64,000 nucleotides of DNA, from the NCBI GenBank assembly GCA_017403145.1, contig JAFQOO010000005.1:107141-171140 (forward strand), given 5' to 3'. The notes below the pieces were generated by a model, which was not told where the DNA came from, ran no database searches, and saw only the letters and a list, made by a program, of their open reading frames with translations. Shown here piece by piece: positions 11,912-49,700 of this stretch. This DNA comes from Clostridia bacterium. Its GTDB lineage: Bacteria > Bacillota > Clostridia > Christensenellales > DTU072. How positions within the stretch are numbered: position 1 is the stretch's first letter; every line of letters begins with the position of its first letter. Both the position numbers and the translations under genes were made by a program.

Positions 11912-11923
11912 GAGAAGATTGTT

Positions 11924-16677: not shown

Positions 16678-17801
16678 TATTTTTTGATAACGCAAGCACG
16701 ACCAAATGCACCAAAGAAAGTGTGGAAATAGTAACCAAATATTTAACCGAGAATTATTATAATCCCTCGGCGCTTTACCATAACGCACTTTCCGTAAAGC
16801 AAGATTTGGAACGAGCAAGACAAACCATAATTAAAAAGTTGCGCGGAGAAGGTAAAATTATATTTACCGGCGGTGGTACCGAAAGTGATAATATTGCGCT
16901 ACTTGGCTCAAAAAAGATAAAGGGCGGTAGAGTGATTGTATCTAGTGCCGAGCACGCAGCTATTTACGCTACTGCAAACGAGCTTAAAGCAAGAGGTTAC
17001 GAAGTAGTTTTTGCTCCTGTAGATGGTAATGGAAAGGTAATAGAGGAAGAGTTTATAAAGTTATTAACACCCTCTGTTACTTTGGTATCCATAATTCACG
17101 TCAATAACGAAACGGGCGCTATGAACGATATTCAAAGACTATGCAAACTAGTTAAAAGCAAATGCCCCAGAGCGCTTTTCCACAGCGACGGGGTACAAGC
17201 TTTTGGTAAACTAGAGGTTAATTTGAGAGGTGCGGGCATAGATTTATATTCTATGAGCGCCCATAAAATAGGTGCACCCAAAGGTGTTGGCGCATTGTAT
17301 ATCGCTAAAGGCGTAAGTGTAAACCCAATAGTTTATGGTGGTGGACAAGAGGGCGGACTTCGTTCTTCTACCGAAAATACCGCTGGTATTCTTGCTTACG
17401 AAAAAGCTGTTATCGATAGATATGCAAAACTAGGTGAAACCGAGCAAAAATTGAAGGAAATTCGCTCTTATATAGCCGATAACCTTCAAAATATAGATGG
17501 AATAAAAATAATTTCTCCGTTAGATGGCTCACCATATATACTAACTTTCACTGTTCCAAGAGTACGTGGCGAGGTTATGCAACACGCACTTGAAAGACGT
17601 GGAATAATGGTAGGTACGGGTAGCGCTTGCGCATCTAATAAAGCATCTACGCGTATTGCCGAAGCACTTGGTTTGCAAGGCAAGTACGTTGACGGAGTAA
17701 CAAGACTAAGTTTCTTTATAGAAAACACAATGGAAGAAGCCGAAATATTCGTTAAAGAGTATTTCGACGTATACAAGGAGTTGGAAAAATATGGCAGTTG
17801 A
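16674..17801 (+). CDS. Cysteine desulfurase (class V aminotransferase, NifS/IscS-like), partner of ThiI
   Basis: Has the PLP-lysine motif SAHKIGAPKG and the active-site Cys in GTGSACAS. It overlaps and precedes thiI. Confidence 0.85.
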   Translation: MIFFDNASTTKCTKESVEIVTKYLTENYYNPSALYHNALSVKQDLERARQTIIKKLRGEGKIIFTGGGTESDNIALLGSKKIKGGRVIVSSAEHAAIYATANELKARGYEVVFAPVDGNGKVIEEEFIKLLTPSVTLVSIIHVNNETGAMNDIQRLCKLVKSKCPRALFHSDGVQAFGKLEVNLRGAGIDLYSMSAHKIGAPKGVGALYIAKGVSVNPIVYGGGQEGGLRSSTENTAGILAYEKAVIDRYAKLGETEQKLKEIRSYIADNLQNIDGIKIISPLDGSPYILTFTVPRVRGEVMQHALERRGIMVGTGSACASNKASTRIAEALGLQGKYVDGVTRLSFFIENTMEEAEIFVKEYFDVYKELEKYGS

Positions 17802-18966
17802 GTATAATTGTATTCTAATTAGATTTGGCGAAATCTTTTTGAAGGGAAATAATCGTAATTATTTTGAAAGTTTACTTATAAAGAATATCAAAAATTCTTT
17901 AAGTGGACTAAATTACAAATTCTCCAAAACGCAAGGTAGATATTATATCGAGGAGTTTGCGTCGGAAGATATGGACGAGATTATTTCTCGTTTGACTAAG
18001 GTTTTTGGCATACACTCCATCAGTCCTACTGTTAAGGTAAAAACCGACCTTGAAGAAATGTGCAAAATTGCTTATGCCATCAGTCCAACCGAAGGCACTT
18101 TTAGAGTAACCGTAAAGAGAGCAGATAAACGTTTCCCAATGACTTCTATGGAAATAGGAGCAAAAATAGGCGGTTATATGCTAAATAAGACGGGTGGAAG
18201 GTTAAAAGTTGACCTATTCGACTACGATTTTGAACTTTTCGTAGATTTGCGCGAAAGTGGATACTCATATCTTTTCTATGATAAGATTATGGGTGCGCAA
18301 GGTCTACCAACAGGTTGCTCCGGTAACGCAATGTTGCTTCTATCGGGCGGTATCGATAGCCCTGTAGCTGGTTACGTTATGGCAAAGCGCGGACTAAGAA
18401 TTTTTGCTATACACTACCATAGCTTCCCATATACTTCTGAGCTTGCTTTACAAAAGGTTAAAGATTTAGCGAAAAAGTTAACCGCATATTGTGGCGATAT
18501 CAAGTTAGCGGTCGTGCCTTTTACCGAAATACAATATGCAATTCACGAGCATTGCCCCGAGGAGTTTATGATTACGATAATGCGTAGATTTATGATGCGT
18601 ATTGCCGAAAGAATTGCTTTGAAGAACGATTGTGGCGCGATAATTACGGGTGAAGCACTTGGTCAAGTAGCAAGTCAAACGATGCAAAGCATACAAGTAA
18701 CCAATTCGGTTGTAACTCTTCCCGTATTTAGACCTCTAATTGGTTCGGATAAGGCGGAAATAATCGATATTGCTAACAAAATCGATACTTTTGATATTTC
18801 TATTCGTCCTTATGAAGATTGTTGCACGGTATTTTTACCCAAAAATCCTGTAATTAAGCCCAAGCTACAAGATGCTATAGAATACGAAAATAGGCTTGAT
18901 ATAGAAGCTCTAATTGAAAAAGCAGTTAACGATACCGTAACCGAGGTTATATCTGTAGAAGACTAA
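17791..18966 (+). CDS. thiI: tRNA 4-thiouridine synthase ThiI
   Basis: 391-aa ORF with a THUMP-type N-terminus and the PP-loop motif SGGIDSPVA. Confidence 0.92.
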   Translation: MAVEYNCILIRFGEIFLKGNNRNYFESLLIKNIKNSLSGLNYKFSKTQGRYYIEEFASEDMDEIISRLTKVFGIHSISPTVKVKTDLEEMCKIAYAISPTEGTFRVTVKRADKRFPMTSMEIGAKIGGYMLNKTGGRLKVDLFDYDFELFVDLRESGYSYLFYDKIMGAQGLPTGCSGNAMLLLSGGIDSPVAGYVMAKRGLRIFAIHYHSFPYTSELALQKVKDLAKKLTAYCGDIKLAVVPFTEIQYAIHEHCPEEFMITIMRRFMMRIAERIALKNDCGAIITGEALGQVASQTMQSIQVTNSVVTLPVFRPLIGSDKAEIIDIANKIDTFDISIRPYEDCCTVFLPKNPVIKPKLQDAIEYENRLDIEALIEKAVNDTVTEVISVED

Positions 18967-18973
18967 GTAGCTT

Positions 18974-18999
18974 ACAATCATAAAATACAATCATAAAAT
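18974..18999. repeat. Perfect tandem duplication of a 13-mer (ACAATCATAAAAT x2)
   Basis: Read directly: 18974-18986 equals 18987-18999. It lies immediately 5' of the SD GGAGG of the DUF4097 gene. Confidence 0.9.
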
Positions 19000-19014
19000 A
19001 GGAGGGTATTGACT

Positions 19015-19956
19015 ATGTTAAAATTACTAAAGATAATAATTACAATAATAATTATTCTTGCAGTATTAGCATTTGGTGTGTTTATTGCTTTGCTTGCGGT
19101 GAGTGATTGGGATATAAATAATTTGAAATACGAAAATCACGAATACGAAATTAGCGAAGCATTTGATAGTATTTCTATAGACGTAAAAGGGAGCTACGTA
19201 AAGTTGATTCCTTCTACCGATGGACAATGCAGAGTTGTTTGTTTTGAAAATAATAATTACAAACATTCTGTGAACGTAGAAAACGATACTTTGGTAGTAA
19301 CGTCAATTCACAAAAAAGTCTTCTTTGGGTATAAAAATACCCTAGTAACCGTCTATTTGCCGGAAAAAGAGTATAATTCGGTTGATGTCGTAACAACTTC
19401 GGGTGATATTGATGTTAAAAACCTAAGCGCAAAAAATATAAATTGTAACGTAGATACCGGCGATTTGGAACTTGAAAACGTTGTATGCTCCACTTTATCT
19501 TCGACGGGTGATACAGGGGACGTAGACTTTGAAAACGTAGTTACTGCGAATAATTTAACGATTAAAAGAGATACCGGTGAAATTGAAATATCGTTGCTTT
19601 CTTGCGGAGGGGACGCAATAGTTGAGGTTGATACCGGAGATATATCTATAGACTTGATAACTTGCAAAAACCTTTCGATTAAATCGGATACCGGTGAAGT
19701 TGAGGTCGATAACGCTAAGATTGATAATAAATTCACCTCAGTTATAGATACGGGGGATTTGAATTTTACCAAAATGGATGTTAATGAAGCGGAAATCACC
19801 TCCGACACAGGCGAAGTAAAAGGCTCGTTTACTTCGGACAAGATTTTTATTGTTCGTACCTCCACAGGAAAGGTTGACGTACCCGAAACTACTAGTGGTG
19901 GTGTATGTAAAATAACCACACATACGGGAGATATCATTATAAAAATCGGTAATTAG
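19015..19956 (+). CDS. DUF4097-type beta-strand-repeat protein with an N-terminal membrane anchor
   Basis: ATG 19015 lies 9 nt after GGAGG. A TM segment (IIITIIIILAVLAFGVFIALLAV) is followed by about 10 repeats of the (D/S)TG(D/E)(I/L/V) motif spaced about 20 aa apart. Confidence 0.7.
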   Translation: MLKLLKIIITIIIILAVLAFGVFIALLAVSDWDINNLKYENHEYEISEAFDSISIDVKGSYVKLIPSTDGQCRVVCFENNNYKHSVNVENDTLVVTSIHKKVFFGYKNTLVTVYLPEKEYNSVDVVTTSGDIDVKNLSAKNINCNVDTGDLELENVVCSTLSSTGDTGDVDFENVVTANNLTIKRDTGEIEISLLSCGGDAIVEVDTGDISIDLITCKNLSIKSDTGEVEVDNAKIDNKFTSVIDTGDLNFTKMDVNEAEITSDTGEVKGSFTSDKIFIVRTSTGKVDVPETTSGGVCKITTHTGDIIIKIGN

Positions 19957-22154
19957 TATAAGTTTATTATAATTTTTGGTTGTGATTTTTTGACCATAAC
20001 GTTATCTTCGGTATAAGCAACCAAATAGTACCATTCAAAACGACGATTAGGCTTTGGTAGGGTGATTTCCACTTTATTAGAGCCTTTTTCTATATTACAA
20101 ATGATGTTTCCTTGTGAATTTTCTATCTTAAAGCTAAATTTTGGATTGCGTGTTAGGGTTATAATAACTTCGCCGTCTCCGTTTATTGCCTCAAAGTCGC
20201 TTGGTAATGCATCATCAAAGTAATTGCTAGTAGGATAATAACGCTCAACGTTTGCAAGGATAGATTTTTTATATTCGATAGGAGTATTTTCGTTTGCAAG
20301 CATTAGAATATGATTATTCTCGTAACAATATTTGTCAATTTCAATATAATCTATAGTATGAGGAATAGTAAAATCTTTAGGTTTATCCATATTACTATGC
20401 ACGCATTTTGCACCGATTGTGGGATAACTACCACCGCTAACCGATAAATTTAGAGGTCTTTTATAATCTTTGCTACCATACCATACGCCTAACGTATGTG
20501 TGGTTGTAAAAGAAATATTCCAAGCATCGAAATTACCCTTATCATCACCGTTGGTTCCAGTTTTAGAGGCAATTTGAGTATCTAATACTCCTAGCTTTTT
20601 AGCAGTTCCACTTTTAGCGCAACCAATCAAAGAATCGGTAAGAAAATAGGCTGTTTCTTCGCTAATTATACGTTTTTCGTTGCTTTTGTGCCTGTATAAG
20701 CAGTTGCCTTTATCATCGTAAATAGTCTTGATAAAGGATAAATCTTTCTTCATTCCACCATTGGCTATTGTTGTATATGCGGTTAATAATTCGGGCATAG
20801 TATGTCCGTAGGTAGTCCCGCCGAGTGCGCTTGCAAGCCCGTCTTGTGAGGCGAAAGTCAACCCAAAATTGCGTGCAGTTTGGAAAGCATATTCATTACC
20901 AACCAAATTCATTAGCTTGATACTACAAGCATTGCTTGAAGTTGCTAAACTTTCTTTAATAGTTGTCCAACCTAAATAGGTATTCCTATAATTATTTGGT
21001 GAATATCCATTTATTTCGCATTTTTCATCTAATATAGGGCTATCTGGTATAATCAAACCTTGTTCAAAGGCTGGCGCATAGGAAATAATCGGCTTTATAG
21101 TTGAGGCACTTTGCCTTCTAAAATCGTGTGGTGAATAGTTTATGCTAGAAATATAGGCACATATTCCACCGCTCGCATTGTCAACAAGCATATAAGTTTT
21201 ATCAGCGCCTATAACCTCTAAATCTTTGTTATAGAAGGCAAAATCAAGTGATTTTTGTGCATTTTCATCAAAATAAGTAGAAATAATATATCCACCTGTG
21301 ATTATTTCACGTTCGCTTAAACCTAGTAAACGAGCGCTTTCGCTTATAACCACTTGAGTATAGGGGATATTTTTATTATGGGTTTCGTCTAACGTGGGTA
21401 TTTCATAGTTTTCGTTGATGGCACTTTCATATTGGCTTTCGTCAATATATCCTTGATTTAGCATAAGCTTCAAAACAAGGTTTCTTCTTGCAATTGCATT
21501 ATCTATCGAGTTAAGTGGCGAGTTTTTGAGAGGGTTTTTAACAATACCGGCTAAAATCGCACTTTCGCCAAGGCTAATATCTATCGGTTCCTTATTAAAT
21601 AACCTTTTACATGCGTCGCCAATACCATATAATGAGTGTCCAAAATATATTGTGTTTAGATATTTCGTTAGAATTTCTTCTTTTGAATAGGTTTTTTCAA
21701 TTTCTAAAGCCAATTTAGCTTCCTTTAGTTTTCGCTCAATTGTTTTCTCTTGTGTTAGTAATGAATTTTTAGCTAGTTGCTGTGTGATAGTAGAACCGCC
21801 TTCTTTAAAATATCCGGCTTTTAAATTATTAAAGCTAGCACCTAGTATACGTTTAAAGTCGATTCCGTTATGTTCATAAAACCTTTTGTCTTCAAGCGAA
21901 ACGAAAGCATAAATAGTGTAGGGGGAGATTTTTTCGTATGGAACGTTGCTTTTGATGGACGAAAAATAGTCCATATTTTTACCTTGAATATCGCTGATAA
22001 CAACTTTTTTGCTATTTGAGCGCTCTAGTGCGTTTTTGTCGAGTTTTATGCCATTTACGACCGAAAACGCATAAAAACTTACGCCGAGTATTATAAAAAA
22101 TACGATAAACAATAATACTAACGAGGTTATTTTAACTATTTTTTTTGCTTTCAT
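19953..22154 (-). CDS. Class A penicillin-binding protein (glycosyltransferase + transpeptidase)
   Basis: GT51 motifs are present (EDKRFYEHNGID, GGSTITQQLAKN). Transpeptidase motifs are STIKP (SxxK), SSN and KTGT. There is an N-terminal TM anchor. Confidence 0.9.
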   Translation of the reverse strand: MKAKKIVKITSLVLLFIVFFIILGVSFYAFSVVNGIKLDKNALERSNSKKVVISDIQGKNMDYFSSIKSNVPYEKISPYTIYAFVSLEDKRFYEHNGIDFKRILGASFNNLKAGYFKEGGSTITQQLAKNSLLTQEKTIERKLKEAKLALEIEKTYSKEEILTKYLNTIYFGHSLYGIGDACKRLFNKEPIDISLGESAILAGIVKNPLKNSPLNSIDNAIARRNLVLKLMLNQGYIDESQYESAINENYEIPTLDETHNKNIPYTQVVISESARLLGLSEREIITGGYIISTYFDENAQKSLDFAFYNKDLEVIGADKTYMLVDNASGGICAYISSINYSPHDFRRQSASTIKPIISYAPAFEQGLIIPDSPILDEKCEINGYSPNNYRNTYLGWTTIKESLATSSNACSIKLMNLVGNEYAFQTARNFGLTFASQDGLASALGGTTYGHTMPELLTAYTTIANGGMKKDLSFIKTIYDDKGNCLYRHKSNEKRIISEETAYFLTDSLIGCAKSGTAKKLGVLDTQIASKTGTNGDDKGNFDAWNISFTTTHTLGVWYGSKDYKRPLNLSVSGGSYPTIGAKCVHSNMDKPKDFTIPHTIDYIEIDKYCYENNHILMLANENTPIEYKKSILANVERYYPTSNYFDDALPSDFEAINGDGEVIITLTRNPKFSFKIENSQGNIICNIEKGSNKVEITLPKPNRRFEWYYLVAYTEDNVMVKKSQPKIIINLY

Positions 22155-30394: not shown

Positions 30395-30563
30395 CAAATA
30401 AATATAACATTTTGCCTAAAACTGCGGAAAAATGCTAAAAAATCAATAGGGGAATCAAAAATTCAAAGCCCTACTGGTATTTTTGGCATAAAAATTCAAG
30501 GAGCCGGATGTGAAAAAGCCTTATCAAAGCATCATATTAACGTTTGTTTTATAATTTACTTGC

Positions 30564-30782
30564 TTGGTGGGTTATTTAGAATGGCATCAAACTCAGTTCA
30601 ATCCGGTTTCTTTGACGTTTTGCTTAGTAGGTTTTGTTCTTGGGTTAGTATTTTCGGCTTTATCAATAAGAACTTTATTAAAAAATGGCATAAAATTACA
30701 TAGGATAGTTTTGCTAATTTCAAGTGTCGGAGCATTTGCATTGAACTCTATAACCATTGTAAAATTGTTAACGTATTTGTAA
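30564..30782 (+). CDS. Hypothetical two-TM mini-protein (doubtful)
   Basis: 72-codon ORF with a TTG/GTG start and no recognisable SD. It has two hydrophobic stretches and is kept only as a possibility. Confidence 0.2.
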   Translation: MVGYLEWHQTQFNPVSLTFCLVGFVLGLVFSALSIRTLLKNGIKLHRIVLLISSVGAFALNSITIVKLLTYL

Positions 30783-31069
30783 GGCGCAAAATTCGTAATC
30801 TTCTAAAATGAATTGTGGGGCAAAACTTGAAAAAATAGTATTAAAATTTCTCAGCAAAAATGCGGGCAATCGTTCATATAAATTTATAAGCAAATTAATA
30901 AAATGGATTTAAGTTCCAGCAAAATAAAAATCAAAAAAATCATCAATTTCTCTAAAAGATTATAGCTTGAATTTTTATAAAATCAACGACTGATAATACG
31001 AATAATTTATTAAATTCAAATGTCTGAGAAAAATTTTACGAATAGATTTGAAATTTTTTTTAAATTTTT

Positions 31070-31115
31070 CGAAATCGTTAGGTTTTACCGAAATATTTGA
31101 GAAAATCACCGAAAT
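31070..31115. repeat. Three phased CGAAAT words (spacing 19 and 21 bp)
   Basis: CGAAAT occurs at 31070-31075, 31089-31094 and 31110-31115. The last two are embedded in ACCGAAAT. The set lies directly left of the 28-bp palindrome. Confidence 0.5.
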
Positions 31116-31137
31116 CTACCCCTCTCGTTTTGCTATC

Positions 31138-31165
31138 TATTCGCAAAATCGGTGTTTTGCGAATA
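31138..31165. other. Perfect 28-bp palindrome with 11-6-11 architecture; candidate Xer/dif-type recombination core site
   Basis: TATTCGCAAAA (31138-31148), TCGGTG (31149-31154), TTTTGCGAATA (31155-31165). The arms are exact reverse complements. Confidence 0.5.
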
Positions 31166-31276
31166 AATGCACACGTGTAAAGGTGATAAAAATCCTTGCT
31201 CCCTACCCAATTTAATCAAAATTTATCACCACCTTTTCTTATTTTTATAAGAACGTACGTTGAAGTAGGAACACTT

Positions 31277-31402
31277 TTACCCTACCAAACGAAAGCAAAG
31301 CCAAGACCGGCAATAGTTCCAGCTAATAGAACTAAAAAAAACAAGAGCTACTACAATAGCAATAGTATTCTTTTTCTTATTTGACACGTTTTTGTAATTC
31401 AT
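31277..31402 (-). CDS. Mini-ORF A, 41 codons (MNYKNVSNKKKNTIAIVVALVFFSSISWNYCRSWLCFRLVG); probably a frameshifted copy of a hydrophobic peptide gene
   Basis: SD AAGGAG lies 7 nt upstream of ATG 31402, and the stop is at 31277-31279. An A8 run at 31334-31341 shifts the frame relative to copy B. Confidence 0.35.
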   Translation of the reverse strand: MNYKNVSNKKKNTIAIVVALVFFSSISWNYCRSWLCFRLVG

Positions 31403-31429
31403 ATTTTTCTCCTTTTAAGGTTTTAATTG

Positions 31430-31458
31430 TTGACAAATAAAGTTATTAAATATATAAT
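31430..31458 (+). promoter_or_regulatory. Consensus sigma-A promoter of small RNA A
   Basis: TTGACA (31430-31435), exactly 17 nt, TATAAT (31453-31458). Confidence 0.75.
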
Positions 31459-31464
31459 CATTAA

Positions 31465-31560
31465 TAGTGAATTAACACTTATTTCGCTTCCTATACAGCG
31501 ATTAGTAAGCATAGTGCCTTACACCAAGCAATGGTCCAATAAACCATTGCTTTTATTTTT
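31465..31560 (+). ncRNA. Candidate small RNA A (about 96 nt, no ORF)
   Basis: The start is inferred about 7 nt after the -10 element. Internal short hairpins are CGCT/AGCG and GTAAG/CTTAC. The terminator AAGCAATGG (31526-31534) / CCATTGCTT (31544-31552) is followed by TTATTTTT. Confidence 0.6.
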
Positions 31561-31655
31561 ATATAAATCTTTAATTTTTCGTTTATCATTTTCTTATTTT
31601 TATAAGAACGTATGTTGAAGTAGGAACACTTTTACCCTACCAAACGAAAGCAAAG

Positions 31656-31760
31656 TCAAGACCCGGCAATAGTTCCAGCTAATAGAACTAAAGAAAGAAC
31701 AAGAGCCACTACCAATAGAGCAGTATTCTTTTTCTTATTTGACACGTTTTTGTAGTTCAT
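31656..31760 (-). CDS. Mini-ORF B, 34 codons (MNYKNVSNKKKNTALLVVALVLSLVLLAGTIAGS); basic N-terminus plus one TM-like segment
   Basis: SD AAGGAA lies upstream of ATG 31760, with TGA at 31656-31658. An extra G relative to copy A (GACCCGGC vs GACCGGC) cuts off the shared hydrophobic tail. Confidence 0.4.
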   Translation of the reverse strand: MNYKNVSNKKKNTALLVVALVLSLVLLAGTIAGS

Positions 31761-31786
31761 TTTTTTTCCTTTTAAGGTTTTGATTG

Positions 31787-31815
31787 TTGACAAATAAAGT
31801 TATTAAATATATAAT
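31787..31815 (+). promoter_or_regulatory. Consensus sigma-A promoter of small RNA B
   Basis: TTGACA (31787-31792), 17 nt, TATAAT (31810-31815). The spacer is identical to promoter A. Confidence 0.75.
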
Positions 31816-31821
31816 CATAAA

Positions 31822-31915
31822 TAGTGAGTTTACACTTAAAGCGCTTATTTAGCGGTGAGAAGTAATACCACACACTTCCATGCAATGGTTTAATAGCCAT
31901 TGCTTTTATTTTTAT
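31822..31915 (+). ncRNA. Candidate small RNA B (about 94 nt), a diverged paralogue of A
   Basis: It shares the 5' AATAGTGA..ACACTTA segment with A. Its hairpins are CGCT/AGCG and GAAGT/ACTTC. The terminator GCAATGG (31882-31888) / CCATTGC (31897-31903) is followed by TTTTATTTTT. Confidence 0.6.
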
Positions 31916-31975
31916 AAAGATTTTTAATCTTTCTCTTATCATTTTCTTATTTTTCCCCTTTTAAGGTTCTAATTG

Positions 31976-32005
31976 TTGACATATACATATTCAAATGATT
32001 ATAAT
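31976..32005 (+). promoter_or_regulatory. Consensus sigma-A promoter of small RNA D
   Basis: TTGACA (31976-31981), 18 nt, TATAAT (32000-32005). The upstream flank is homologous to units A and B, but the peptide ORF is missing. Confidence 0.7.
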
Positions 32006-32011
32006 AATTGA

Positions 32012-32089
32012 TGTGAGAGTCAGGTTCATCTGACCGTGATAATTAAATCCCACTCACAAGAGAGCATTTAATTGCTCTCTTTATTTTTT
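32012..32089 (+). ncRNA. Candidate small RNA D (about 78 nt)
   Basis: TGTGAG (32012-32017) pairs with CTCACA (32053-32058), enclosing the hairpin GTCAG/CTGAC. The terminator AGAGAGCA (32059-32066) / TGCTCTCT (32073-32080) is followed by TTATTTTTT. Confidence 0.55.
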
Positions 32090-32126
32090 ATTTCGATGTT
32101 TAGTAGAAATTTTCTTCATATCCCAC

Positions 32127-32267
32127 TTAAAGTCGGTTTGGTTGGTAATCGGTATCAGCTACAAGTTCGATATTCTTACCCATTACGTCTTTAACGAACA
32201 GTTTCTTCGTTACTCTATCATTTTCCTCATTTACAACCGCTTTAGTTAAAAATTTAATCTTACTCAT
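32127..32267 (-). CDS. Hypothetical 46-codon ORF (MSKIKFLTKAVVNEENDRVTKKLFVKDVMGKNIELVADTDYQPNRL); doubtful
   Basis: It is shorter than the smallest entry in the ORF track and was found by manual translation. There is no recognisable SD. Confidence 0.15.
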   Translation of the reverse strand: MSKIKFLTKAVVNEENDRVTKKLFVKDVMGKNIELVADTDYQPNRL

Positions 32268-32283
32268 AATTGCAATTTTTATC

Positions 32284-32312
32284 TTGACTTTTTGTGAATA
32301 ATTGAATATACT
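32284..32312 (+). promoter_or_regulatory. Sigma-A-type promoter of small RNA E
   Basis: TTGACT (32284-32289), 17 nt, TATACT (32307-32312). Confidence 0.65.
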
Positions 32313-32318
32313 AATAAT

Positions 32319-32385
32319 GACAAAAGTAAATATTAAATTTCTTTTCCCACAGGGCAGTAATAATAACCTGTGGGATTCTTTTTTA
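32319..32385 (+). ncRNA. Candidate small RNA E (about 67 nt)
   Basis: CCCACAGG (32346-32353) pairs with CCTGTGGG (32367-32374) and is followed by ATTCTTTTTT. It converges on the 3' end of the minus-strand ORF 32383-32565. Confidence 0.5.
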
Positions 32386-32565
32386 ATTTATTTTTCTTTT
32401 TGCAAAAGCTTTAATAGAATCTGATTGCTTCTTGCTTAAATGCCTTTTTGAAATTTCATTAACATTAGAATCTTGTAAATTAATAGGTTTACCATTTATG
32501 TTTTTATCATAAAAAGAATTATGTACACCGGATACAACTTCAAATTCCTTAAACTTCATCGGCAT
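32383..32565 (-). CDS. Hypothetical small basic protein, about 60 aa (MPMKFKEFEVVSGVHNSFYDKNINGKPINLQDSNVNEISKRHLSKKQSDSIKAFAKRKIN)
   Basis: The track ORF 32383-32640 was shortened because a TTGACT-17-TATACT plus-strand promoter occupies its first 25 codons. ATG 32565 has a weak AAAGG upstream. Confidence 0.3.
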   Translation of the reverse strand: MPMKFKEFEVVSGVHNSFYDKNINGKPINLQDSNVNEISKRHLSKKQSDSIKAFAKRKIN

Positions 32566-32616
32566 AATAAAACCTTTGCTTACTTGTTGAAATCTCTTTT
32601 TATCTTTAGTATATAC

Positions 32617-32645
32617 TTGACTTATATATGCTATTAGCATATACT
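32617..32645 (+). promoter_or_regulatory. Sigma-A-type promoter of small RNA F
   Basis: TTGACT (32617-32622), 17 nt, TATACT (32640-32645). These are the same hexamers as promoter E. Confidence 0.65.
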
Positions 32646-32651
32646 ATCAAT

Positions 32652-32717
32652 AAAGACAGTGGCCTGCCGTGAAAACGGATGTGAGCATCGGAAGTATTTT
32701 CGGCTGTCTTATTTTTT
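32652..32717 (+). ncRNA. Candidate small RNA F (about 66 nt, one closed three-way structure)
   Basis: AAGACAG (32653-32659) pairs with CTGTCTT (32704-32710) and is followed by ATTTTTT. Inside are CCGT-GAAA-ACGG (a GNRA tetraloop hairpin) and CGGAA/TTTCG. Confidence 0.5.
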
Positions 32718-32764
32718 ATGCCTTTTTATCAACTCTTTATCATAATCACTTCTTAAAGCAAATA

Positions 32765-32935
32765 AAAGATAGCCGAGGCTCTCCAGCCCTCTATGCGTTT
32801 GAAGTGAGGATTCTGGCAAGTATAGTGGTCTTGCCAACACGGGGCACAAGGGAGTGTCCCTTGAGGCATAACAGGGACCACCTCTTGGTCTTCTTAACTC
32901 CCCTTTTGTCGGTGTCGCTTGCGCGCGAGAGTATA
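32765..32935. ncRNA. GC-rich, multi-hairpin element of unknown class (candidate structured RNA; strand unresolved)
   Basis: This is a sharp GC-rich patch in AT-rich intergenic DNA. Perfect hairpins lie at 32814-32820/32830-32836 (7 bp), 32847-32853/32857-32863 (7 bp) and 32874-32880/32886-32892 (7 bp, two of them G-U on the plus strand). Possible closing helices are 32801-32810/32892-32901 and 32772-32776/32909-32913. Terminator-like hairpins flank it on both strands. Confidence 0.4.
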
Positions 32936-32971
32936 AAAAAAGACAGGCTCTTGTGTCCTGTCTTAATTTTT
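32935..32971. terminator. Bidirectional intrinsic terminator
   Basis: AAGACAGG (32940-32947) pairs with CCTGTCTT (32957-32964). An A7 run lies upstream, giving a U7 tail on the minus strand after the 91-aa ORF. AATTTTT lies downstream on the plus strand. Confidence 0.65.
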
Positions 32972-33245
32972 AATCCACTATTGGATATTCTATATAATCA
33001 ATAATTTCAATTAAAGGTTTATTATTTATTTTAAATTCTAAAAGTAAAGCATCTATTGTATTAAACGTTTTATTATAAATCTCGTTTATATAAATATCTA
33101 CACCTTTCCCATCTTTAGTTATAATTAAATAATCTTTATGATTATATTGAAAATCAATTGAATACGAGCTTTTAAAGCTATCATATAACATATTAATAAA
33201 ATCTATTGAGTCTTGAACATCAGTGTATTTTTTAATATCAATCAT
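32970..33245 (-). CDS. Hypothetical acidic 91-aa protein (immunity/antitoxin-like second gene of a decayed bicistron)
   Basis: A clean ORF with GGAG 12 nt upstream and a strong terminator directly after the stop. The start ATG is embedded in ATGA with one reading frame of the upstream decayed gene. No recognisable family. Confidence 0.5.
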   Translation of the reverse strand: MIDIKKYTDVQDSIDFINMLYDSFKSSYSIDFQYNHKDYLIITKDGKGVDIYINEIYNKTFNTIDALLLEFKINNKPLIEIIDYIEYPIVD

Positions 33246-33554
33246 TTTATCACAAATCTCCTTTTCTTTTTAGCTTTATCAAATTCACGTTGCTCTTTTT
33301 TGTTAATTTCCTTTCTGAAGAACGAATAGGACCATTATAATCATGAGTATGGTCACTATTATTATGATTATTATGAGGTCTATTATATTCTTTATTCAAG
33401 GAACCTTTATCACCGACTTTCTTTCGCTGAATCCAGTTTTACTATGATAAACATCTATATTAGTATTAGGCTCTCCATAAATAGGCATCCTCGAAACAAT
33501 TTTTTTCAAACCTTTTGCATTAATTAATAATAAATCGTGTTTATGCTTTGACAT
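33242..33554 (-). pseudogene. Frameshifted small basic protein gene upstream of the 91-aa ORF
   Basis: Strong SD AAGGAG lies 7 nt before ATG 33554. Frame 1 (MSKHKHDLLLINAKGLKKIVSRMPIYGEPNTNIDVYHSKTGFSERKSVIKVP) stops at 33396. The -1 frame stays open across that stop (..VGDKGSLNKEYNRPHNNHNNSDHTHDYNGPIRSSERKLTKK..) and continues to 33250. A third frame ends in the ATGA overlap at 33242-33245. Confidence 0.45.
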
Positions 33555-33612
33555 AATTATACTCCTTTTGTGTCATAAAATCAATATGGTAAATCATCGT
33601 TATTATCATCAA

Positions 33613-33706
33613 CCGGCAATAGTTCTAGCTAGAGAACTAAAGAAAAACAAGAGCTACTACAATAGCAATAGTATTTTTTCTTATTTGACACGTTTTTTAA
33701 TTCATA
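33613..33706 (-). pseudogene. Dead third copy of the hydrophobic-peptide mini-gene
   Basis: It is homologous to ORF A and B, but ATG AAT TAA gives a stop at codon 3 through a 1-nt deletion. There is a further 2-nt deletion, and the 3' end is truncated at 33613. Confidence 0.5.
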
Positions 33707-33734
33707 TTTTTCTCCTTTTTAAGGTTTTAATTGT

Positions 33735-33763
33735 TGACAAATAAAAATATTAGATATATAATC
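33735..33763 (+). promoter_or_regulatory. Consensus sigma-A promoter of small RNA C
   Basis: TTGACA (33735-33740), 17 nt, TATAAT (33758-33763). Confidence 0.75.
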
Positions 33764-33769
33764 ATTAAT

Positions 33770-33866
33770 AGTGAATTAACACTTATTTCGCTTCTCACAG
33801 CGATTAGTAAGCATTGTGCCTTACACCAAGCAATGGTCCAATAAACCATTGCTTTTATTTTTTATA
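33770..33866 (+). ncRNA. Candidate small RNA C (about 97 nt), a near-identical paralogue of A
   Basis: It differs from A only in a hairpin loop (TCTCAC vs TCCTATACA) and one other base. The terminator AAGCAATGG (33829-33837) / CCATTGCTT (33847-33855) is followed by TTATTTTTT. Confidence 0.6.
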
Positions 33867-33897
33867 AGCATCCCCTATTTTTTTATTGTTTAGTATT

Positions 33898-33928
33898 TTA
33901 AGCAAAAATTCATTGTATTTTGCGAATA
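33898..33928. other. Degenerate copy of the 28-bp site, abutting the recombinase gene
   Basis: TTTAGCAAAAA (33898-33908), a 9-nt spacer TTCATTGTA, then TTTTGCGAATA (33918-33928). The right arm is identical to 31155-31165. Confidence 0.35.
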
Positions 33929-33947: not shown

Positions 33948-35018
33948 ATGGCAAACGAAAGATATTACGACCAATTTAATAGAGAAAAATATGAGAAATT
34001 TAACTCCATCGTTGAAGAACTTCCCTATTTTTGCAATGAGTACTTTACCGGTATAGATTCCACTACTTCGGTGCTTACTAAACTTAACTATGCAACCGAT
34101 TTATCCATTTTCTTTGACTTTTTGGTGCATAAAGTACACGGTTTTGTCGGTAAGCAAATTGCTGATATTACTTTAAAAGATATTGACGAATATATATCAG
34201 CTACCGAAATTGAATATTTTTTAAGATATTTATCCTTCTATACTTTCAAAGGAAAGCCCTATCGTAATGCAGAAAAGGCTAAGGCAAGAAAGTTGAGTGC
34301 TGTTAGGTCCCTATTCAAATATTTTTATAATAAGGATAAACTTAGTCAAAACGTTACTGCAAAAGTTGCAACGCCCAAGCTTCACGAGAAAGCTATTGTT
34401 CGTTTGGACGATAACGAAGTGGAAAAAATGCTTGATACTGTAGAAAGTGAGCAAAAATTTGTTTCAAAATTCCAAAATAGTTATAATATGAACACGCGCG
34501 ACCGCGATATTGCTATAGTTACGTTATTTTTAGGTACGGGAATTCGTGTTAGCGAGTTGGTTGGTATAAATCTTGATGACCTTGATATAAAGAATAACGC
34601 ATTTAAAGTTACTAGGAAAGGCGGAAACGTATCTGTTCTATATTTCTCCGAAGAAGTAAAAGATGCGCTTGAATACTACCTAGAATGGCGTGAGCAAAGA
34701 CTCCTCAAGGCCAATCGATTGGATAAAGAAAACGCACTATTTATTTCTTTGCAAAACAAGCGCATAACCGTTAGAGCTGTTGAGAATTTGGTAAAAAAGT
34801 ATACGGGCGTTGTCAATCCTTTAAAATCGGTATCTCCGCATAAACTACGTTCCACCTATGGTACCGCTCTTTACCGCCAAACCAAGGATATTTATATGGT
34901 TGCAGAAGTGCTTGGTCATCGAGACGTTAATACCACAAAGAAACACTATGCTGCAATAGACGAAGATATAAAGCGCGAAGCATCTACCAAGGTTAAGTTG
35001 CGTAAAAACGACGATTAA
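33948..35018 (+). CDS. Tyrosine site-specific recombinase, Xer family (XerS-like single recombinase)
   Basis: 356-aa ORF. Catalytic residues are in GTGIRVSEL (Arg), HKLRST (His-x-x-Arg), LGHRDVNTT (His) and KKHY (Tyr). The N-terminal core-binding domain has LPYFCNEYF...FFDFL, and a VTRKGGN motif is present. Length and motifs match my recollection of XerS. Confidence 0.85.
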   Translation: MANERYYDQFNREKYEKFNSIVEELPYFCNEYFTGIDSTTSVLTKLNYATDLSIFFDFLVHKVHGFVGKQIADITLKDIDEYISATEIEYFLRYLSFYTFKGKPYRNAEKAKARKLSAVRSLFKYFYNKDKLSQNVTAKVATPKLHEKAIVRLDDNEVEKMLDTVESEQKFVSKFQNSYNMNTRDRDIAIVTLFLGTGIRVSELVGINLDDLDIKNNAFKVTRKGGNVSVLYFSEEVKDALEYYLEWREQRLLKANRLDKENALFISLQNKRITVRAVENLVKKYTGVVNPLKSVSPHKLRSTYGTALYRQTKDIYMVAEVLGHRDVNTTKKHYAAIDEDIKREASTKVKLRKNDD

Positions 35019-46778: not shown

Positions 46779-49700
46779 TTATTTCTTTTTACCCATCATT
46801 TGCTTTCTGATGGTACGTTTTGCAACACCGCGCGTAATCGCCTTGTAGTTGGCTATTTTTACTAGGTAACCTATTAGGAATATTAGGCCTATTCCGCCTA
46901 CTGCAGAGCCTGCTACGACGTAAGGAGTAATGTTGGGCTTATCTTCATTGGGAGATTCGTATACTATGGTATATACTCCGTTGAAGTAATTGAATGAATA
47001 GTTTTCATCGTATCCTTCGTTAAACTCGATTACGTTGACGCCTACTTTACCGCTGGTAAGCTTGGGTGTGGGTAGAACAGCTATATCTTCTACACCTTCG
47101 TTTTCAACAAAGCCTTCGTATATTAGGTTAATCTTAGGTGCAATACCAGCATAAGTTGTGATATTTGCAGGGGTTGAAACCTTTAGTACCTTTTTAGCGA
47201 TTGTAAACTCAACCGAGTTAGAACCGGAAATGGTGTATGAAGAATTGGAGGGTGTTACGATTAGTCTATAGGTACCTGCATCACGAATGGTATCAACGTT
47301 GAAGATTTTAACAGGTTCACAGTTGTCTCCGACGATTACTCCATTGAAGTAAACCTTAACGTCGTCGTTGCGGGTATAACCATTGTAAACAAGGTTTTTG
47401 TATCCGTCGAACGATACGCTAATAGTCTTGGTCTTAATTTGGATGCTTTGAGTGCCTTCTACGTCGAGATAGTCGTTGGTTTCTTCAAATGAAGCGGATA
47501 CGGTGTGTCTACCTGCCGGGGGGAATGCGGGCAATGTACCATCTTCATTTTCAAATGAATAGCGAACGTCTATAGCTTTTTCTAGACCGGGAGCCTTGAC
47601 GGAAGCGTTGATTGCTGTAAACGAGCCATAGGTTTGAGTAAAGGTTCCGGTAAAGTACAAGGTGGGAGTTACCTTATTTATAACCATTTCGGTGCTAGCG
47701 AGCAAGCGATATTTAGAGATATCTTGTTCGTCGCTTTCGTGGTAGAAATAGCAATTTATAGTATAAACACCGGCAGATTTAGGTGCGCTAGTTTGTAGTA
47801 GATAGTCTTTACCATCGTAACGTCTACCTTCATATTTTAGAATGTATTTAACGTTTTCTTGGATGGAATCCTCTTCGATAATGGGTTCAACTGTTTTAGC
47901 GGTGTTATCAAAATCGAAGGAGTAGGATTTACTTCCAAACTTAACTATAGCAAGTTCCTTGATTTCGGCGGGAATTATAACGATTCTACTATCTTCGTTG
48001 GCGGGGAGCTTATAGTTGTCGCTATGAGTTCCTTCGAGAGCGTTGATAGTCATAACAACCGTAGTTTTACCGGGGTCGGCTGAGGTTAGTACAGCCTTAT
48101 AATTGACCTTTAGAGCACCCGTAGTATTGGCATCGCGTTCAATCAAGCCGTTTATTACGTAGTTTTCTTGGGTGATTTCCGCATAAGTAGTACCATCAAC
48201 GGTCTTAACGAAGGTTGAACCTGCGCTAATAGTAACCTCTCTAGGAGTAATGTTAACGTCTTGTTCTGCAGCGATTTCGCCCATTTGAACAACCACTAAA
48301 TCACCCCTTTCGTTTTTCTTAACGATATTATAATTGGTGTAGCTTTCTTTATCGTTTATTATTACGATGGTGTGTTTGCTTGCACTCATTATAGTTTCGA
48401 CGTTGCCTTCGCCGGATAGATAGTTTTCTTTGTAATTGATGTATACCTTTATGCCGACGTTTGCGCTATCGGGAGTTTCGTTGTTAACGAATCCTTTATA
48501 TATAATGTTAGGATATGCAATATCAAATTCGTCAACTACGTTTTGTGAATAATGTTCACCGTATACCAAATCGTAATCGCCTTGACCGAACGTTAAGGTA
48601 AGGTTTACTTTATCGATAATAGCTTGGTCGGTATATTTTAGAATACCATCGGTCTTTTGAACGCCATTTTCGCCTATTTCACCGGGCAATACGTAGTTGT
48701 TTGCATATTCGTCGACCTTGAACTTATAAATTATATTTATAATCTTATTTTGACCTGCATTTGCGTTATCGTACTCAGCATAAACGGAAAGTTGGTGATT
48801 TAGGAACCTTTCGGGTATGTTTGTCTTGCTGGGGTCGATGGAAGCGGTTTTGGTACCGTCATAGGGCTTTTGAATGGTTACACTAGGACGTGTAGCATCG
48901 TTACCAACGTTAAATACGGTGTTCAAATTGAATTTATTAACGAATAGCCTATAATTTACGTTGTTACCATTTTCATCGATAGCACGATAGTTTTTATCAA
49001 CTATAAATTCACCGTTATCTAGTTTCTTTAGGAATTCTATGGTAAGAGCATAACCGCTTTCTTTATAGGGAATACCGCCTATATCGTAGGAAGAAGTGAT
49101 GGCTTCACGAGTAATGCGAACGTATTGCTTAAAGTTTTCTTCGGTAATATTTGCATCACATTTTTCAAAGTCGATTAGTAGACCATTGTAGTAATCGGGG
49201 TCATAAGATGTTATATCGTTTCCTTGAGTGTCTTTATAGGTGAAGGTCTCGCCAAAGGTAATATAGTAAGTGTTGTTATCAAATGCGTAAATATGGTTAT
49301 TGTTTAGGGTTACCTTAACGCTTCTACCGACAATAACAATTTTACCCTTATTGGTGCCTTCGTTCATCTTACATACAACGTTAGAGTTGTTATCGGTGCA
49401 CGAAGTCGATAAGTCGTAAGAGCCTGCATCGGTACCCTCTTTTATTGTGTTAGAATTGATGGGCTCCATTGCAACGATAACCGTATATTCGCCCAATACA
49501 GGTGAATATAATCTAATCTCTTGAACTAGATTTATAATGGGAGTCATATAGTCGAATTCGAAGCGTTTTGCATCGAAATAAACTTCCAACTCATCAATTC
49601 TAAACGTGTCGTTAGCACCATCATAGCCAAAGTAGTTAATATTATAGTTGCTGTTTGCTTCACTAGAATTTGCTATTTCATAGGAAACGTTGTTGTTTTC

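Follow-up and report, generated by a model that had tools for sequence, protein, structure and literature searches.

Single-strand origins are orientation-specific stretches of ~160 nt that are highly structured as single-stranded DNA (ssDNA). Most often they are found just upstream of the double-strand origin, and they are hot spots for recombination (PMC5703833; PMC4595007). For sso1 of ICEBs1, orientation-dependent conversion of ssDNA to dsDNA was assayed with an sso-less plasmid as cloning vector and with blots of ssDNA (PMC4595007). Another structured motif, GEBRO (GC-Enriched, Between Replication Origins), is known from plasmid pUA140 and was reported by Weinberg et al. in 2017, who proposed that it may act as ssDNA (PMC5737381). 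Bacterial CRESS-like Reps are found mostly on site-specifically integrated elements (PMC6668415). Integration at dif via Xer recombinases is common among inoviruses, and in Lactococcus and Streptococcus the difSL site immediately adjoins xerS (PMC5357621).

We analyzed a 64-kb stretch of Clostridia DNA (the window) containing a GC-rich, multi-hairpin patch at 32765-32935, which a first-pass annotation had read as a candidate structured RNA gene. The relatives compared are strains of the same uncultured Clostridia species, all represented by metagenome contigs (loci L002, L111 and so on). The patch is probably a non-functional relic: the origin-proximal structured domain of an eroded rolling-circle CRESS-like Rep replicon that integrated at the replication terminus. 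GC-rich hairpins that stand out from AT-rich DNA need not mark an RNA gene; this patch would be debris of a mobile-element origin. The features of the locus are these:

31140..31163, no strand: perfect dif-like palindrome, TTCGCAAAA-TCGGTG-TTTTGCGAA (exact-site search)
32128..32250, minus strand: N-terminal remnant of the element's 149-aa gene (blastn; 70% protein identity over 50 aa)
32605..32768, minus strand: mid-element fragment (blastn, L111 16905-17070)
32617-32645, plus strand: promoter TTGACT-17-TATACT, one of the intergenic promoters (promoter scan)
32653-32710, within the 32605..32768 fragment: hairpin of the 107-aa gene
32762-32712, stop at 32711-32709, minus strand: last 17 codons of the 107-aa gene, ALRSDYDKELIKRHKK (tblastn)
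32769..32770, no strand: deletion junction (blastn collinearity with L111; L002)
32771..32935, minus strand: truncated GC-rich multi-hairpin domain, first two-thirds (identity to L002, L111, L022 and L020; covariance model)
32936..32971, minus strand: intrinsic terminator, AAGACAGG...CCTGTCTT then U7 (ends the 91-aa gene; directly before the domain in every copy)
32970..33554, minus strand: three small genes of 91, 49 and 52 aa (ORFs between rep remnant and terminator)
33578..33612, minus strand: rep 3' remnant, last 11 codons, ..DDNNDDLPY plus stop (tblastn, Rep P0001 residues 332-342)
33900..33926, no strand: difSL-like site AAGCAAAAAT-TCATTGT-ATTTTGCGAA, 21 nt upstream of the recombinase gene
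33948..35018, plus strand: XerS-like tyrosine recombinase, 356 aa (Pfam Phage_integrase; NCBIfam NF003462)

The GC content of the patch is 53.2%, compared with 38% for the whole window and 28% for the surrounding variable island, and is the maximum among all 171-nt stretches in the 64 kb. The patch is as conspicuous as first described; the description of its surroundings as extremely AT-rich fits the local island and not the genome as a whole. All three annotated 7-bp hairpins are present. On inspection of the sequence, pairing is perfect in hairpin 1 (TGGCAAG/CTTGCCA, 32814-20/32830-36) and in hairpin 2 (CAAGGGA/TCCCTTG, 32847-53/32857-63, loop GTG), and hairpin 3 (GGGACCA/TGGTCTT, 32874-80/32886-92) has five Watson-Crick and two G-U pairs on the plus strand. 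The terminator (32940-32971) and both of the small hairpins that flank the patch are likewise in place. The proposed long-range helix (8 of 10 positions paired) and the outer helix GCCGA/UCGGU can both be drawn in the sequence, but neither is kept in the intact homologues. Measured against dinucleotide-preserving shuffles (n = 200), the plus strand folded as RNA reaches −58.1 kcal/mol (z = −0.85, with 37 of 200 shuffles equal or better), and the minus strand with DNA parameters gives z = −1.32 (23 of 200 equal or better). The overall fold of the window copy is no stronger than that of composition-matched shuffles on either strand.

Searches for known relatives of the patch gave little. At the gathering score, Rfam 15 (4227 models) matches the 64-kb window solely at a tRNA-Trp (39069) and nowhere at the patch; at E≤10, the interval 32300-33300 returns only snR70 and HOTAIR_3, both chance matches, with GEBRO not among them. 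Neither the patch nor an intact copy had a blastn match among phages and plasmids, exact-pattern scans among viral contigs gave zero matches, and a two-block pattern scan of metagenome contigs found nothing. The genome-contig scan with CCCCGTGKTGGCAAGACCAC produced one match, by chance, inside a coding gene of Levilactobacillus. Open reading frames cross the patch (111 aa on the plus strand; 46 and 42 aa on the minus strand), and a Pfam search of the ORF spanning it matched no family. A 39-aa ORF with a Shine-Dalgarno-like sequence in the L002 homologue is not intact in the other copies: in L020 only five codons precede a stop, and the window copy has lost the start to a deletion. Judged by these reading frames, the patch is non-coding.

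Homologues of the patch were found in other strains. Read along the minus strand, 32771-32964 shares 88% identity with L002 8620-8828, L108 3281-3488 and L111 11055-11263, 80% with L022 and 72-86% with L020, and the family covariance model scores the window patch at 118.5 bits. A covariance model built on 128 conserved positions (R1) returned no additional relatives from 80 Rep-family loci, and as far as these sequence searches reach the family is confined to this lineage. In the intact homologues (L002, L020, L022, L108 and L111) the domain lies downstream of a Rep gene with PF02407 and PF00910, between a gene terminator and a nick-site hairpin carrying TAGTATTAC, and ends 60-110 nt 5' of that hairpin on the rep-sense strand. 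The terminator and the domain follow rep or accessory genes in this order in L002, L022, L108 and L111; in L022 and L108 the complete order is rep, 108/111 aa, 93/88 aa, terminator, domain. With its terminator, the domain's initial ~60 nt are repeated after different genes, in three places in L002 and also in L008, L010 and L111. Assembly could account for some of the mosaicism among the metagenome contigs compared.

The intact copies fold far better than their shuffles, both as RNA (z of −3.3 to −3.7) and as DNA on the rep-sense strand (z of −3.9 to −6.0). Each fold is closed by CACCGC/GCGGTG, and the distal hairpin and the GC palindrome retain their structure despite sequence differences. 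Hairpins 2 and 3 are kept among the relatives with a few compensatory changes (hairpin 1 is missing in L022 and L020). The covariation count is not significant. RNAalifold places a compensatory change at 9 of 80 pairs; over 131 conserved columns, both sides have changed in 2 of 30 pairs, a level matched by 53 of 500 shuffles, and these counts rest on five distinct sequences. Neither folding nor alifold energy gives a clear preference between the rep-sense strand and its complement, so that the intact domain may act as RNA on either strand or as a double-stranded protein-binding platform. The strand that carries the nick is the minus strand of the window, not the plus strand that the G-U pairs had been taken to favor. 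No promoter is conserved among L002, L022 and L020. The intact L111 copy has no Rfam match at the gathering score, and GEBRO is not among the matches of L111 10950-11600 at E≤10. What survives of the RNA-gene proposal is a non-coding patch that descends from a conserved structured element; an Rfam match, a conserved promoter and a conserved architecture were not found.

The window is collinear with the intact element in L111 (blastn), and the alignment locates the damage precisely. At the 32769/70 junction, L111 11263, in the GC domain, is joined to L111 16905, at the 3' end of a gene; the comparison with L002 places the breakpoint at 32769/70 again. A deletion would have removed the ~5.6 kb absent across this junction, and with it the domain's distal third, the GC palindrome, the hairpin of the nick site (stem, TAGTATTAC, stem) and roughly twelve genes. 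The supposed minus-strand terminator, a hairpin plus CUUUUAUUU, straddles the deletion junction and is therefore fortuitous. What the window retains is the terminal 35 nt of rep together with three small genes, the terminator and the domain's first two-thirds. The flanks align closely: 32605-32768 is 95% identical to L111 16905-17070, 32128-32250 is 91% identical at the DNA level to L111 17356-17475, and 33578-33612 is 100% identical to L111 10998-11032. The 91-, 49- and 52-aa genes stand where L022 and L108 have their accessory genes, and they match nothing in Pfam or NCBIfam. Beyond the 35-nt remnant the rep gene is absent from the window, as is a nick hairpin near the patch; the sole TAGTATTAC of the window, at 6974-6982, is at chance level (0.89 expected). 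The intact arrangement occurs in four independent assemblies (L002, L108, L111 and L112) and the window arrangement in at least six, with the relic 99-100% identical; versions in other strains are truncated elsewhere, at 32803, 32838 and 32899. The window copy lacks the closing helix and the distal hairpin of the intact domain. Because it is identical in several samples and sits 3' of a good plus-strand promoter (32617-32645), the relic may be transcribed, and it may have acquired a secondary, domesticated role.

One feature of the intact homologues is repeated throughout a large Rep family. The Rep of L002 (P0001) combines an HUH nuclease (PF02407) with an SF3 helicase (PF00910) and has 1586 homologues at E≤1e-5; by its domains, the rep product is classed as a CRESS-like HUH plus SF3-helicase protein. 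Among Rep relatives, 45 distinct origins were compared: GC content in the 300 nt lying 5' of the nick hairpin exceeds the locus average by 6.6 points, and none of the downstream regions shows such enrichment. At 48 origins, the 250 nt 5' of the hairpin have a median z of −3.5, compared with −0.5 downstream (p = 3e-6). Structure and GC enrichment immediately 5' of the nick site thus form a family-wide pattern. In two relatives, an Rfam motif, RAGATH-8, follows rep on the same strand at a distance of ~400 nt. Contigs of close relatives tested for circularity have no terminal overlaps, and hence an extrachromosomal form was not seen among them.

These observations suggest how the domain may once have worked. 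Rep elements would integrate at dif-like sites beside the XerS-like recombinase gene at the replication terminus, and in the window lineage one such element would have eroded until only the last 35 nt of rep remained. In an intact element, Rep would nick the rep-sense strand (the window's minus strand) at TAGTATT/AC, and leading-strand synthesis would displace the nicked strand. The domain, directly 5' of the nick, would become single-stranded last and could then form a closed multi-hairpin structure. This structure would serve as a single-strand origin at which host RNA polymerase or primase starts the complementary strand; were the element packaged as ssDNA, it could also be used as a packaging signal. 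On grounds of position, structure and analogy, the domain most likely served originally as a single-strand origin, in the form of ssDNA. The window copy, which has no rep, no nick site and no complete fold, is incapable of that role.

The start of the complementary strand is poorly known in CRESS-type replicons, and the intact homologues, rather than the window copy, offer a concrete candidate. We put forward tentatively, as a possibility we would not bet on, that the intact ~210-nt domain represents an undescribed class of single-strand origin or packaging signal, possibly a structured RNA, of Xer-exploiting CRESS-like Rep elements in gut Clostridia that integrate at dif-like sites next to a XerS-like gene. 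In that case the family-wide structured DNA 5' of TAGTATTAC, perhaps including RAGATH-8, would supply what has long been missing for CRESS-like replicons of bacteria, an origin for the complementary strand, and the relic itself might keep some activity, as a recombination hot spot or a transcribed fragment.

It is instructive to set the domain beside the known systems. It resembles the sso elements (ssoA, ssoU, ssoT, ssoW as well as ssoL) in being non-coding, ~160-230 nt long and rich in intrastrand hairpins. An sso is situated on the nicked strand, immediately upstream of the double-strand origin, and is exposed last, an arrangement found in the homologues and lost with the origin in the window. 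In sso elements structure outweighs sequence, and recombination and the shuffling of cassettes have hot spots there (PMC5703833, PMC4595007); the intact homologues are sso-like in position, size, structure and mosaic breakpoints. They differ in that neither the window patch nor the intact L002 copy has a blastn match (word size 11) among 72,556 PLSDB plasmids, and in that the initiator is a CRESS-like HUH plus SF3-helicase Rep with a TAGTATTAC nick loop, not Rep_1, Rep_2 or Rep_trans. The window copy departs further: it is truncated and orphaned, without the in-cis HUH Rep and nick site of L002, L020, L022, L108 and L111, and the extensive ssDNA structure (z = −1.32 in the window) is confined to the intact copies. 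GEBRO, too, is a GC-enriched structured motif; it sits between or beside the origins of a rolling-circle replicon whose host is a low-GC Firmicute. The resemblance is functional only: its covariance model matches neither the patch nor the L111 copy, even at E≤10, and the Rep family is another one.

Filamentous phages and CRESS replicons provide further points of comparison. On the viral strand, the intergenic region of the Ff phages runs from a gene end through a terminator and several hairpins to the nick site, the same order as in the intact domain. Rep relatives with 40-47% identity occur in GenBank genomes classified as Inoviridae (ssDNA phages). A further parallel is the common use of dif and Xer recombinases by inoviruses for integration (PMC5357621). 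The intact element, which may be a plasmid, a phage or a satellite, exceeds 11 kb, has no Zot or coat-protein homologues in PHROGs or Pfam, and shares Rep alone with the inovirus record (PHROGs, Pfam and record comparison). The element also has one weak tail-chaperone match (E = 0.015). The nick-site hairpin beside the intact domain is of the kind described by the ssNA-helicase motif RF03070 and by the origin stem-loop of CRESS-DNA viruses and pCRESS. RF03070 hits the nick hairpin at the gathering score in 16 of the 40 Rep-family loci scanned, and that of L111 at 16.8 bits against a threshold of 41.5. That hairpin is a neighbor of the GC domain rather than the domain itself, and is absent from the patch. 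As in pCRESS-type replicons, the Rep of L002 joins HUH and SF3 domains, of which the window retains the last 11 codons only.

Since the patch is non-coding and the GC maximum of the window, with hairpins 2 and 3 conserved, a promoter (10/12, sigma-70-like) upstream and a terminator downstream on the plus strand, and a relic 99-100% identical in at least six assemblies, it could be read as a free-standing small RNA gene of a new class, expressed either by a weak promoter of its own on the minus strand or within a ~320-nt plus-strand transcript, as its 3' portion (promoter 32617-32645 to terminator 32940-32971). We judge this improbable. The plus-strand promoter comes from an unrelated segment that the 5.6-kb deletion brought alongside, the two being far apart in intact elements; shuffles fold as well on both strands, Rfam is empty of matches even at E≤10, the closing helix and distal hairpin are gone, and the truncations at 32803, 32838 and 32899 form a pattern of decay, unlike that of a conserved gene. 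Less improbable, though still unlikely, is that the intact domain acts as structured non-coding or regulatory RNA (in copy number, rep expression or lysogeny) and that the window holds a dead copy. Conserved structure with some compensatory changes suits RNA and ssDNA alike, energies cannot tell the strands apart, and RAGATH-8, a different large motif, lies ~400 nt past rep in two relatives. Weinberg et al. (2017) held that bioinformatics alone cannot assign such motifs to RNA or ssDNA (PMC5737381). The rep-sense domain, however, starts immediately after a strong terminator and has no promoter conserved among L002, L022 and L020. Copy-control antisense RNAs of rolling-circle plasmids act at the rep leader, and the domain lies outside it. 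The position 5' of the nick, and the family-wide structure and GC enrichment despite unrelated sequences, fit a DNA-level replication signal better.

The tyrosine recombinase gene 1 kb away, the repetition of the first ~60 nt and terminator behind different genes, and the strain breakpoints inside the patch would suit a site-specific recombination site, either the attachment site of that recombinase or an integron-like attC hairpin. This is very improbable, as the breakpoints fall at four different positions in the patch and are not site-specific, and integrated Rep elements have their junctions elsewhere, at dif-like sites of the form TTCGCAAAA-N6-TTTTGCGAA outside the GC domain. The recombinase is Xer-like: XerS (NF003462) is its best NCBIfam model (E = 9e-57), at 192 bits against a 267-bit cut-off and thus below it, compared with 56.7 bits for the integron integrase model TIGR02249 (cut-off 265). 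The attC reading was rejected on this ground, there being no IntI. The chance that the patch is a remnant of a higher-GC protein-coding gene seems negligible, even though open frames span it and the L002 copy has a 39-aa ORF with a Shine-Dalgarno-like sequence. Protein-coding homology, named at first pass as a possible refutation, was not found: Pfam is empty, and the small ORF is broken in L020 and has lost its start in the window. The coding reading was accordingly dropped; protein similarity was seen to the 107-aa protein of L111 alone, and it falls in the flank, at 32712-32762, outside the GC patch.

The locus is the replication terminus and carries a XerS-like recombinase gene and dif-like sites; the strand bias of genes switches at 37.7 kb, and the cumulative GC skew has its maximum at 30-32 kb. 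The recombinase has the length of XerS (356 aa), and its gene is directed away from the small minus-strand genes. The terminal position, the XerS-like gene with its adjacent difSL-like site, the hybrid dif-like sites at element junctions and the arrays of elements and relics recall IMEX and the XerS/difSL module. The likeness concerns the context and not the patch, with the recombinase under the XerS cut-off and one junction seen. In L002, L111, L017 and L108, a hybrid site TTCG[C/T]AAAA-N6-TTTTTAATAGC lies ~100 nt upstream of rep, observed as one junction per integrated element. CRESS-like Rep elements are thus seen at dif-like sites beside a XerS-like gene at a Clostridia replication terminus. 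Exact TTCGCAAAA sites occur only twice in the window, at 31140..31163 and at 33918, and the former appears to be an unoccupied attachment site for Rep elements. Strain-to-strain variation starts immediately left of the 33900..33926 site.

The GC-rich, multi-hairpin patch at window positions 32765-32935, which the first-pass annotation took as a candidate RNA gene, is real as a sequence feature: its GC content is 53.2%, compared with 38% for the window and 28% for the variable island, and no other 171-nt stretch in the whole 64 kb matches this value. The pairings described for it are readable in the sequence, with two perfect 7-bp hairpins, a third containing two G-U pairs on the plus strand, a long-range helix pairing at 8 of 10 positions, small flanking hairpins and the hairpin at 32940-32971. 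Folded as RNA on the plus strand, the whole patch is no more stable than dinucleotide-preserving shuffles (z -0.85; 37 of 200 shuffles equal); as minus-strand DNA it reaches z -1.32, and a larger 326-nt region around it behaves similarly against shuffles. The patch matches no Rfam family, whether the limit is the gathering score or E<=10, contains no tRNA or tmRNA, and has no similar DNA among 50,697 phage and 72,556 plasmid records.

The patch sits in a 3.5-kb gene-poor island of the host, an uncultured Clostridia MAG, and the several small minus-strand ORFs of this island are without a family match.

Features of the island and its flanks (window coordinates)
30400-33900: gene-poor island
31140-31163: perfect dif-like palindrome, TTCGCAAAA-TCGGTG-TTTTGCGAA
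31234-31600, 31590-31950 and 33612-33867: three ~355-nt repeats
33900-33926: imperfect inverted repeat resembling difSL, AAGCAAAAAT-TCATTGT-ATTTTGCGAA, located 21 nt 5' of the recombinase start codon
One flank: mutL, miaA and a methionine gamma-lyase-family gene
Other flank: 356-aa tyrosine recombinase (33948-35018), lexA and a PadR-domain gene

Across strains of the same species, of which 16 contigs were retrieved through exact look-ups of neighbouring proteins, the island is a mosaic with breakpoints within the patch at 32768/71, 32803, 32838 and 32899. A full copy, 88% identical to window 32771-32964, lies in contig L002 directly after the gene for a Rep initiator that combines a Viral_Rep (PF02407) with an SF3 helicase (PF00910) domain. 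On the rep-sense strand (window minus strand), the order in L002 is rep, an intrinsic terminator, a ~210-nt GC-rich multi-hairpin domain, a perfect GC palindrome and a stem-loop whose loop carries TAGTATTAC, the sequence at which CRESS-type Reps canonically nick. Contigs L108, L111 and L112 (99% identity to L002) share this arrangement, as do L022 (Rep 80% and domain 81% identical) and L020 and L021 (Rep 68%, domain 72%); in L017, where Rep is 56% identical, the analogous region has 51% GC and is unalignable. The intact element of L111 reaches >11 kb past rep (11582-21029) and carries Zn-ribbon and HTH genes in divergent orientation together with ~17 ORFs that all point the same way. Pfam and PHROG families match almost none of these ORFs (there is one weak match, to Phage_TAC_5, at E 0.015).

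The decisive evidence on the origin of the patch comes from comparing the window minus strand with this intact integrated element.

Window minus strand and its counterparts in L111
33578-33612 = L111 10998-11032: last 35 nt of rep, 100% identity
33554-32970: three small genes without L111 counterpart, placed where L022 and L108 have their accessory genes
32964-32771 = L111 11055-11263: terminator and first two-thirds of the domain, 87.6%
32768-32605 = L111 16905-17070: final 17 codons of a 107-aa gene with its hairpin, plus intergenic promoters, 95%
32250-32128 = L111 17356-17475: N-terminal part of a 149-aa gene, 91%

The deletion join at window 32769/70 implies that ~5.6 kb is missing from the window. 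The lost DNA includes the domain's distal third, and with it the closing helix's 3' half, as well as the GC palindrome, the hairpin bearing the nick site, the divergently oriented Zn-ribbon and HTH genes and some ten more ORFs. No rep gene is present in the window, and TAGTATTAC occurs there once, at 6974, which is the chance level. Judged from this alignment, the window copy is a truncated relic of the domain of an integrated Rep element. The earlier reading as a new RNA gene thus gives way: most likely the patch is a decayed piece of the structured region that lies beside the origin of an integrated rolling-circle element. The deletion also accounts for two signals noted previously, since the plus-strand promoter at 32617-32645 and the U-run of the minus-strand hairpin plus CUUUUAUUU both come from the foreign flank. 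This promoter (TTGACT-17-TATACT) holds in its spacer a perfect palindrome, ATATGCTA-T-TAGCATAT, that may be an operator, and downstream of it come a 58-nt hairpin at 32653-32710 and a U6 run (segment 32617-32717); the same DNA lies inside the L111 element (16905-17070), overlapping the stop codon of the 107-aa gene.

In each intact copy the domain is closed by CACCGC/GCGGTG, with several hairpins inside. Compared with shuffles, intact copies on the rep-sense strand reach z values of -3.3 to -3.7 as RNA and -3.9 to -6.0 as DNA; values for the complementary strand are similar, so that energy gives no strand choice. Hairpins are retained between L002 and L020 with altered sequence, as in AAGAGGACCAA-GAG-TTGGTCCCTCTT vs TTAAGGACAA-GAG-TTGTCCTTAA and CAAGGGA-CAC-TCCCTTG vs CGAGGGA-CGC-TCCCTCG, and the distal hairpin and GC palindrome likewise keep their structure while their sequences differ. 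The covariation check proposed for the patch gave a formally weak signal, because there are only five distinct sequences: both partners have changed in 2 of the 30 pairs of the conserved part, a count that 53 of 500 shuffles equal. RNAalifold on three full copies finds compensatory change in 9 of 80 pairs. Since the 39-aa ORF of L002 shows no conservation in relatives, the domain is non-coding.

In the Ff phage intergenic region, terminator, hairpins and nick site follow one another, an order mirrored by the surroundings of the intact domain. Single-strand origins are ~160 nt long, highly structured as ssDNA and orientation-specific; their usual place is immediately upstream of the double-strand origin, so that they are exposed last. 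What defines them is structure more than sequence, and they act as hot spots of recombination (PMC5703833; PMC4595007). Because all of these properties fit, the intact domain most likely serves as a single-strand origin. Its setting also resembles that of GEBRO, a GC-enriched motif beside the origins of a rolling-circle plasmid, for which action as ssDNA was suggested (PMC5737381). The GEBRO covariance model gave no match at E<=10 to the patch or to the L111 copy, and neither the patch nor an intact copy resembled known sso sequence types (blastn, 72,556 plasmids), so that our claim is limited to working like these elements rather than belonging to them. That the intact domain acts as RNA is a live alternative to the single-strand origin.

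We retrieved 80 metagenome loci with Rep relatives at 40-50% identity from a family of 1586 homologues (E<=1e-5). A stem-(N)AGTATTAC-stem hairpin occurs on the rep strand in most of them. In 16 of the 40 loci scanned (L030-L113), the nick-site hairpin with TAGTATTAC is hit at gathering score by the Rfam family RF03070 (ssNA-helicase); this family, listed as an 'sRNA', thus seems to represent the origin stem-loop of replicons with a CRESS-like Rep. Among the 80 loci, the GC-domain sequence itself was not found outside close relatives. GC content in the 300 nt 5' of the hairpin exceeds that of the locus by 6.6 points on average, with an excess of >5 points at 26 of 45 origins vs 0 of 45 downstream. 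Folding of the 250 nt on the same side gives a median z of -3.5 vs -0.5 downstream (n=48, p = 3e-6). Structured, GC-enriched DNA 5' of the nick hairpin is a general property of the family. Rep relatives (40-47% identity) also occur in GenBank 'bajarodino virus' genomes classed as Inoviridae, in one of which Zot adjoins rep and the origin hairpin is of the same type; in a comparison with one inovirus record, Rep alone is common to it and the element studied here. In two loci (L043 2011-2286 and L044 2946-3221; 313 and 257 bits), the orphan Rfam motif RAGATH-8 follows a Rep homologue on the same strand at a distance of ~400 nt, a placement comparable to that of the GC domain. RAGATH-8 could thus be an ssDNA or RNA element with a role in the replication of these Rep replicons.

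The replication terminus lies within the window: large genes run on the plus strand to 37641 and on the minus strand from 37743 (among the latter a very long ORF of 2755 aa, 46779-55046), and the cumulative GC skew peaks at ~30-32 kb, where the AT skew changes sign. The 356-aa recombinase, directly upstream of lexA, is Xer-like (best model XerS, 192 bits, cut-off 267 bits; integron integrase model only 56.7 bits, cut-off 265). Its gene and the difSL-like site, whose left arm varies between strains (AAGCAAAAA vs ATGAAAAAA), are arranged as in XerS/difSL, where the dif site adjoins the recombinase gene (PMC5357621). A hybrid site, TTCG[C/T]AAAA-N6-TTTTTAATAGC, lies ~100 nt upstream of rep in L002, L111, L017 and L108; in these strains the left arm and spacer of the dif-like palindrome are joined to a different right arm, TTTTTAATAGC. 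Given this arm swap, the window counterpart, the intact palindrome at 31140-31163, looks like an unoccupied attachment site. Together, the hybrid sites, the terminus location and the XerS-like gene suggest that Rep elements integrate via the host Xer system in an IMEX-like manner, with one junction seen per element; no circular form of the element was found. This setting agrees with bacterial CRESS-like Reps being mostly on site-specifically integrated elements (PMC6668415).

Copies of the terminator together with the domain's first ~60 nt stand behind unrelated genes as well (L002 5112-5195 and 6290-6370; L111 9203-9297; also in contigs L008 and L010). Two independent junctions of these core copies fall at one nucleotide, after GGGGAGTTAAGA, and the copies differ in whether they have an 18-nt segment flanked by two GAAGGGGAG direct repeats; the recurrence and shared junction may reflect hairpin-promoted deletion or an unrecognised site. 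Between the difSL-like site and a core copy (L002 4945-5112, L111 9030-9200) lies a segment absent from the window, with a promoter-like TTGACA...TATAAT followed by ~150 nt of non-coding DNA with a hairpin end.

At window 31944-32100, a TTGACA-17-TATAAT promoter precedes a putative small hairpin RNA and terminator, where Rfam gave chance-level matches only (snoZ103, mir-46). The same promoter sequence occurs in each ~355-nt repeat, divergent from a small hydrophobic minus-strand ORF (MNYKNVSNKKKNT...) and ahead of a different, predicted ~90-nt plus-strand hairpin/terminator RNA. By this layout the repeats resemble type I toxin-antitoxin modules. Those of the window seem to have suffered frameshifts or truncation; an intact 40-aa form of the ORF is found at L017 3639-3761.
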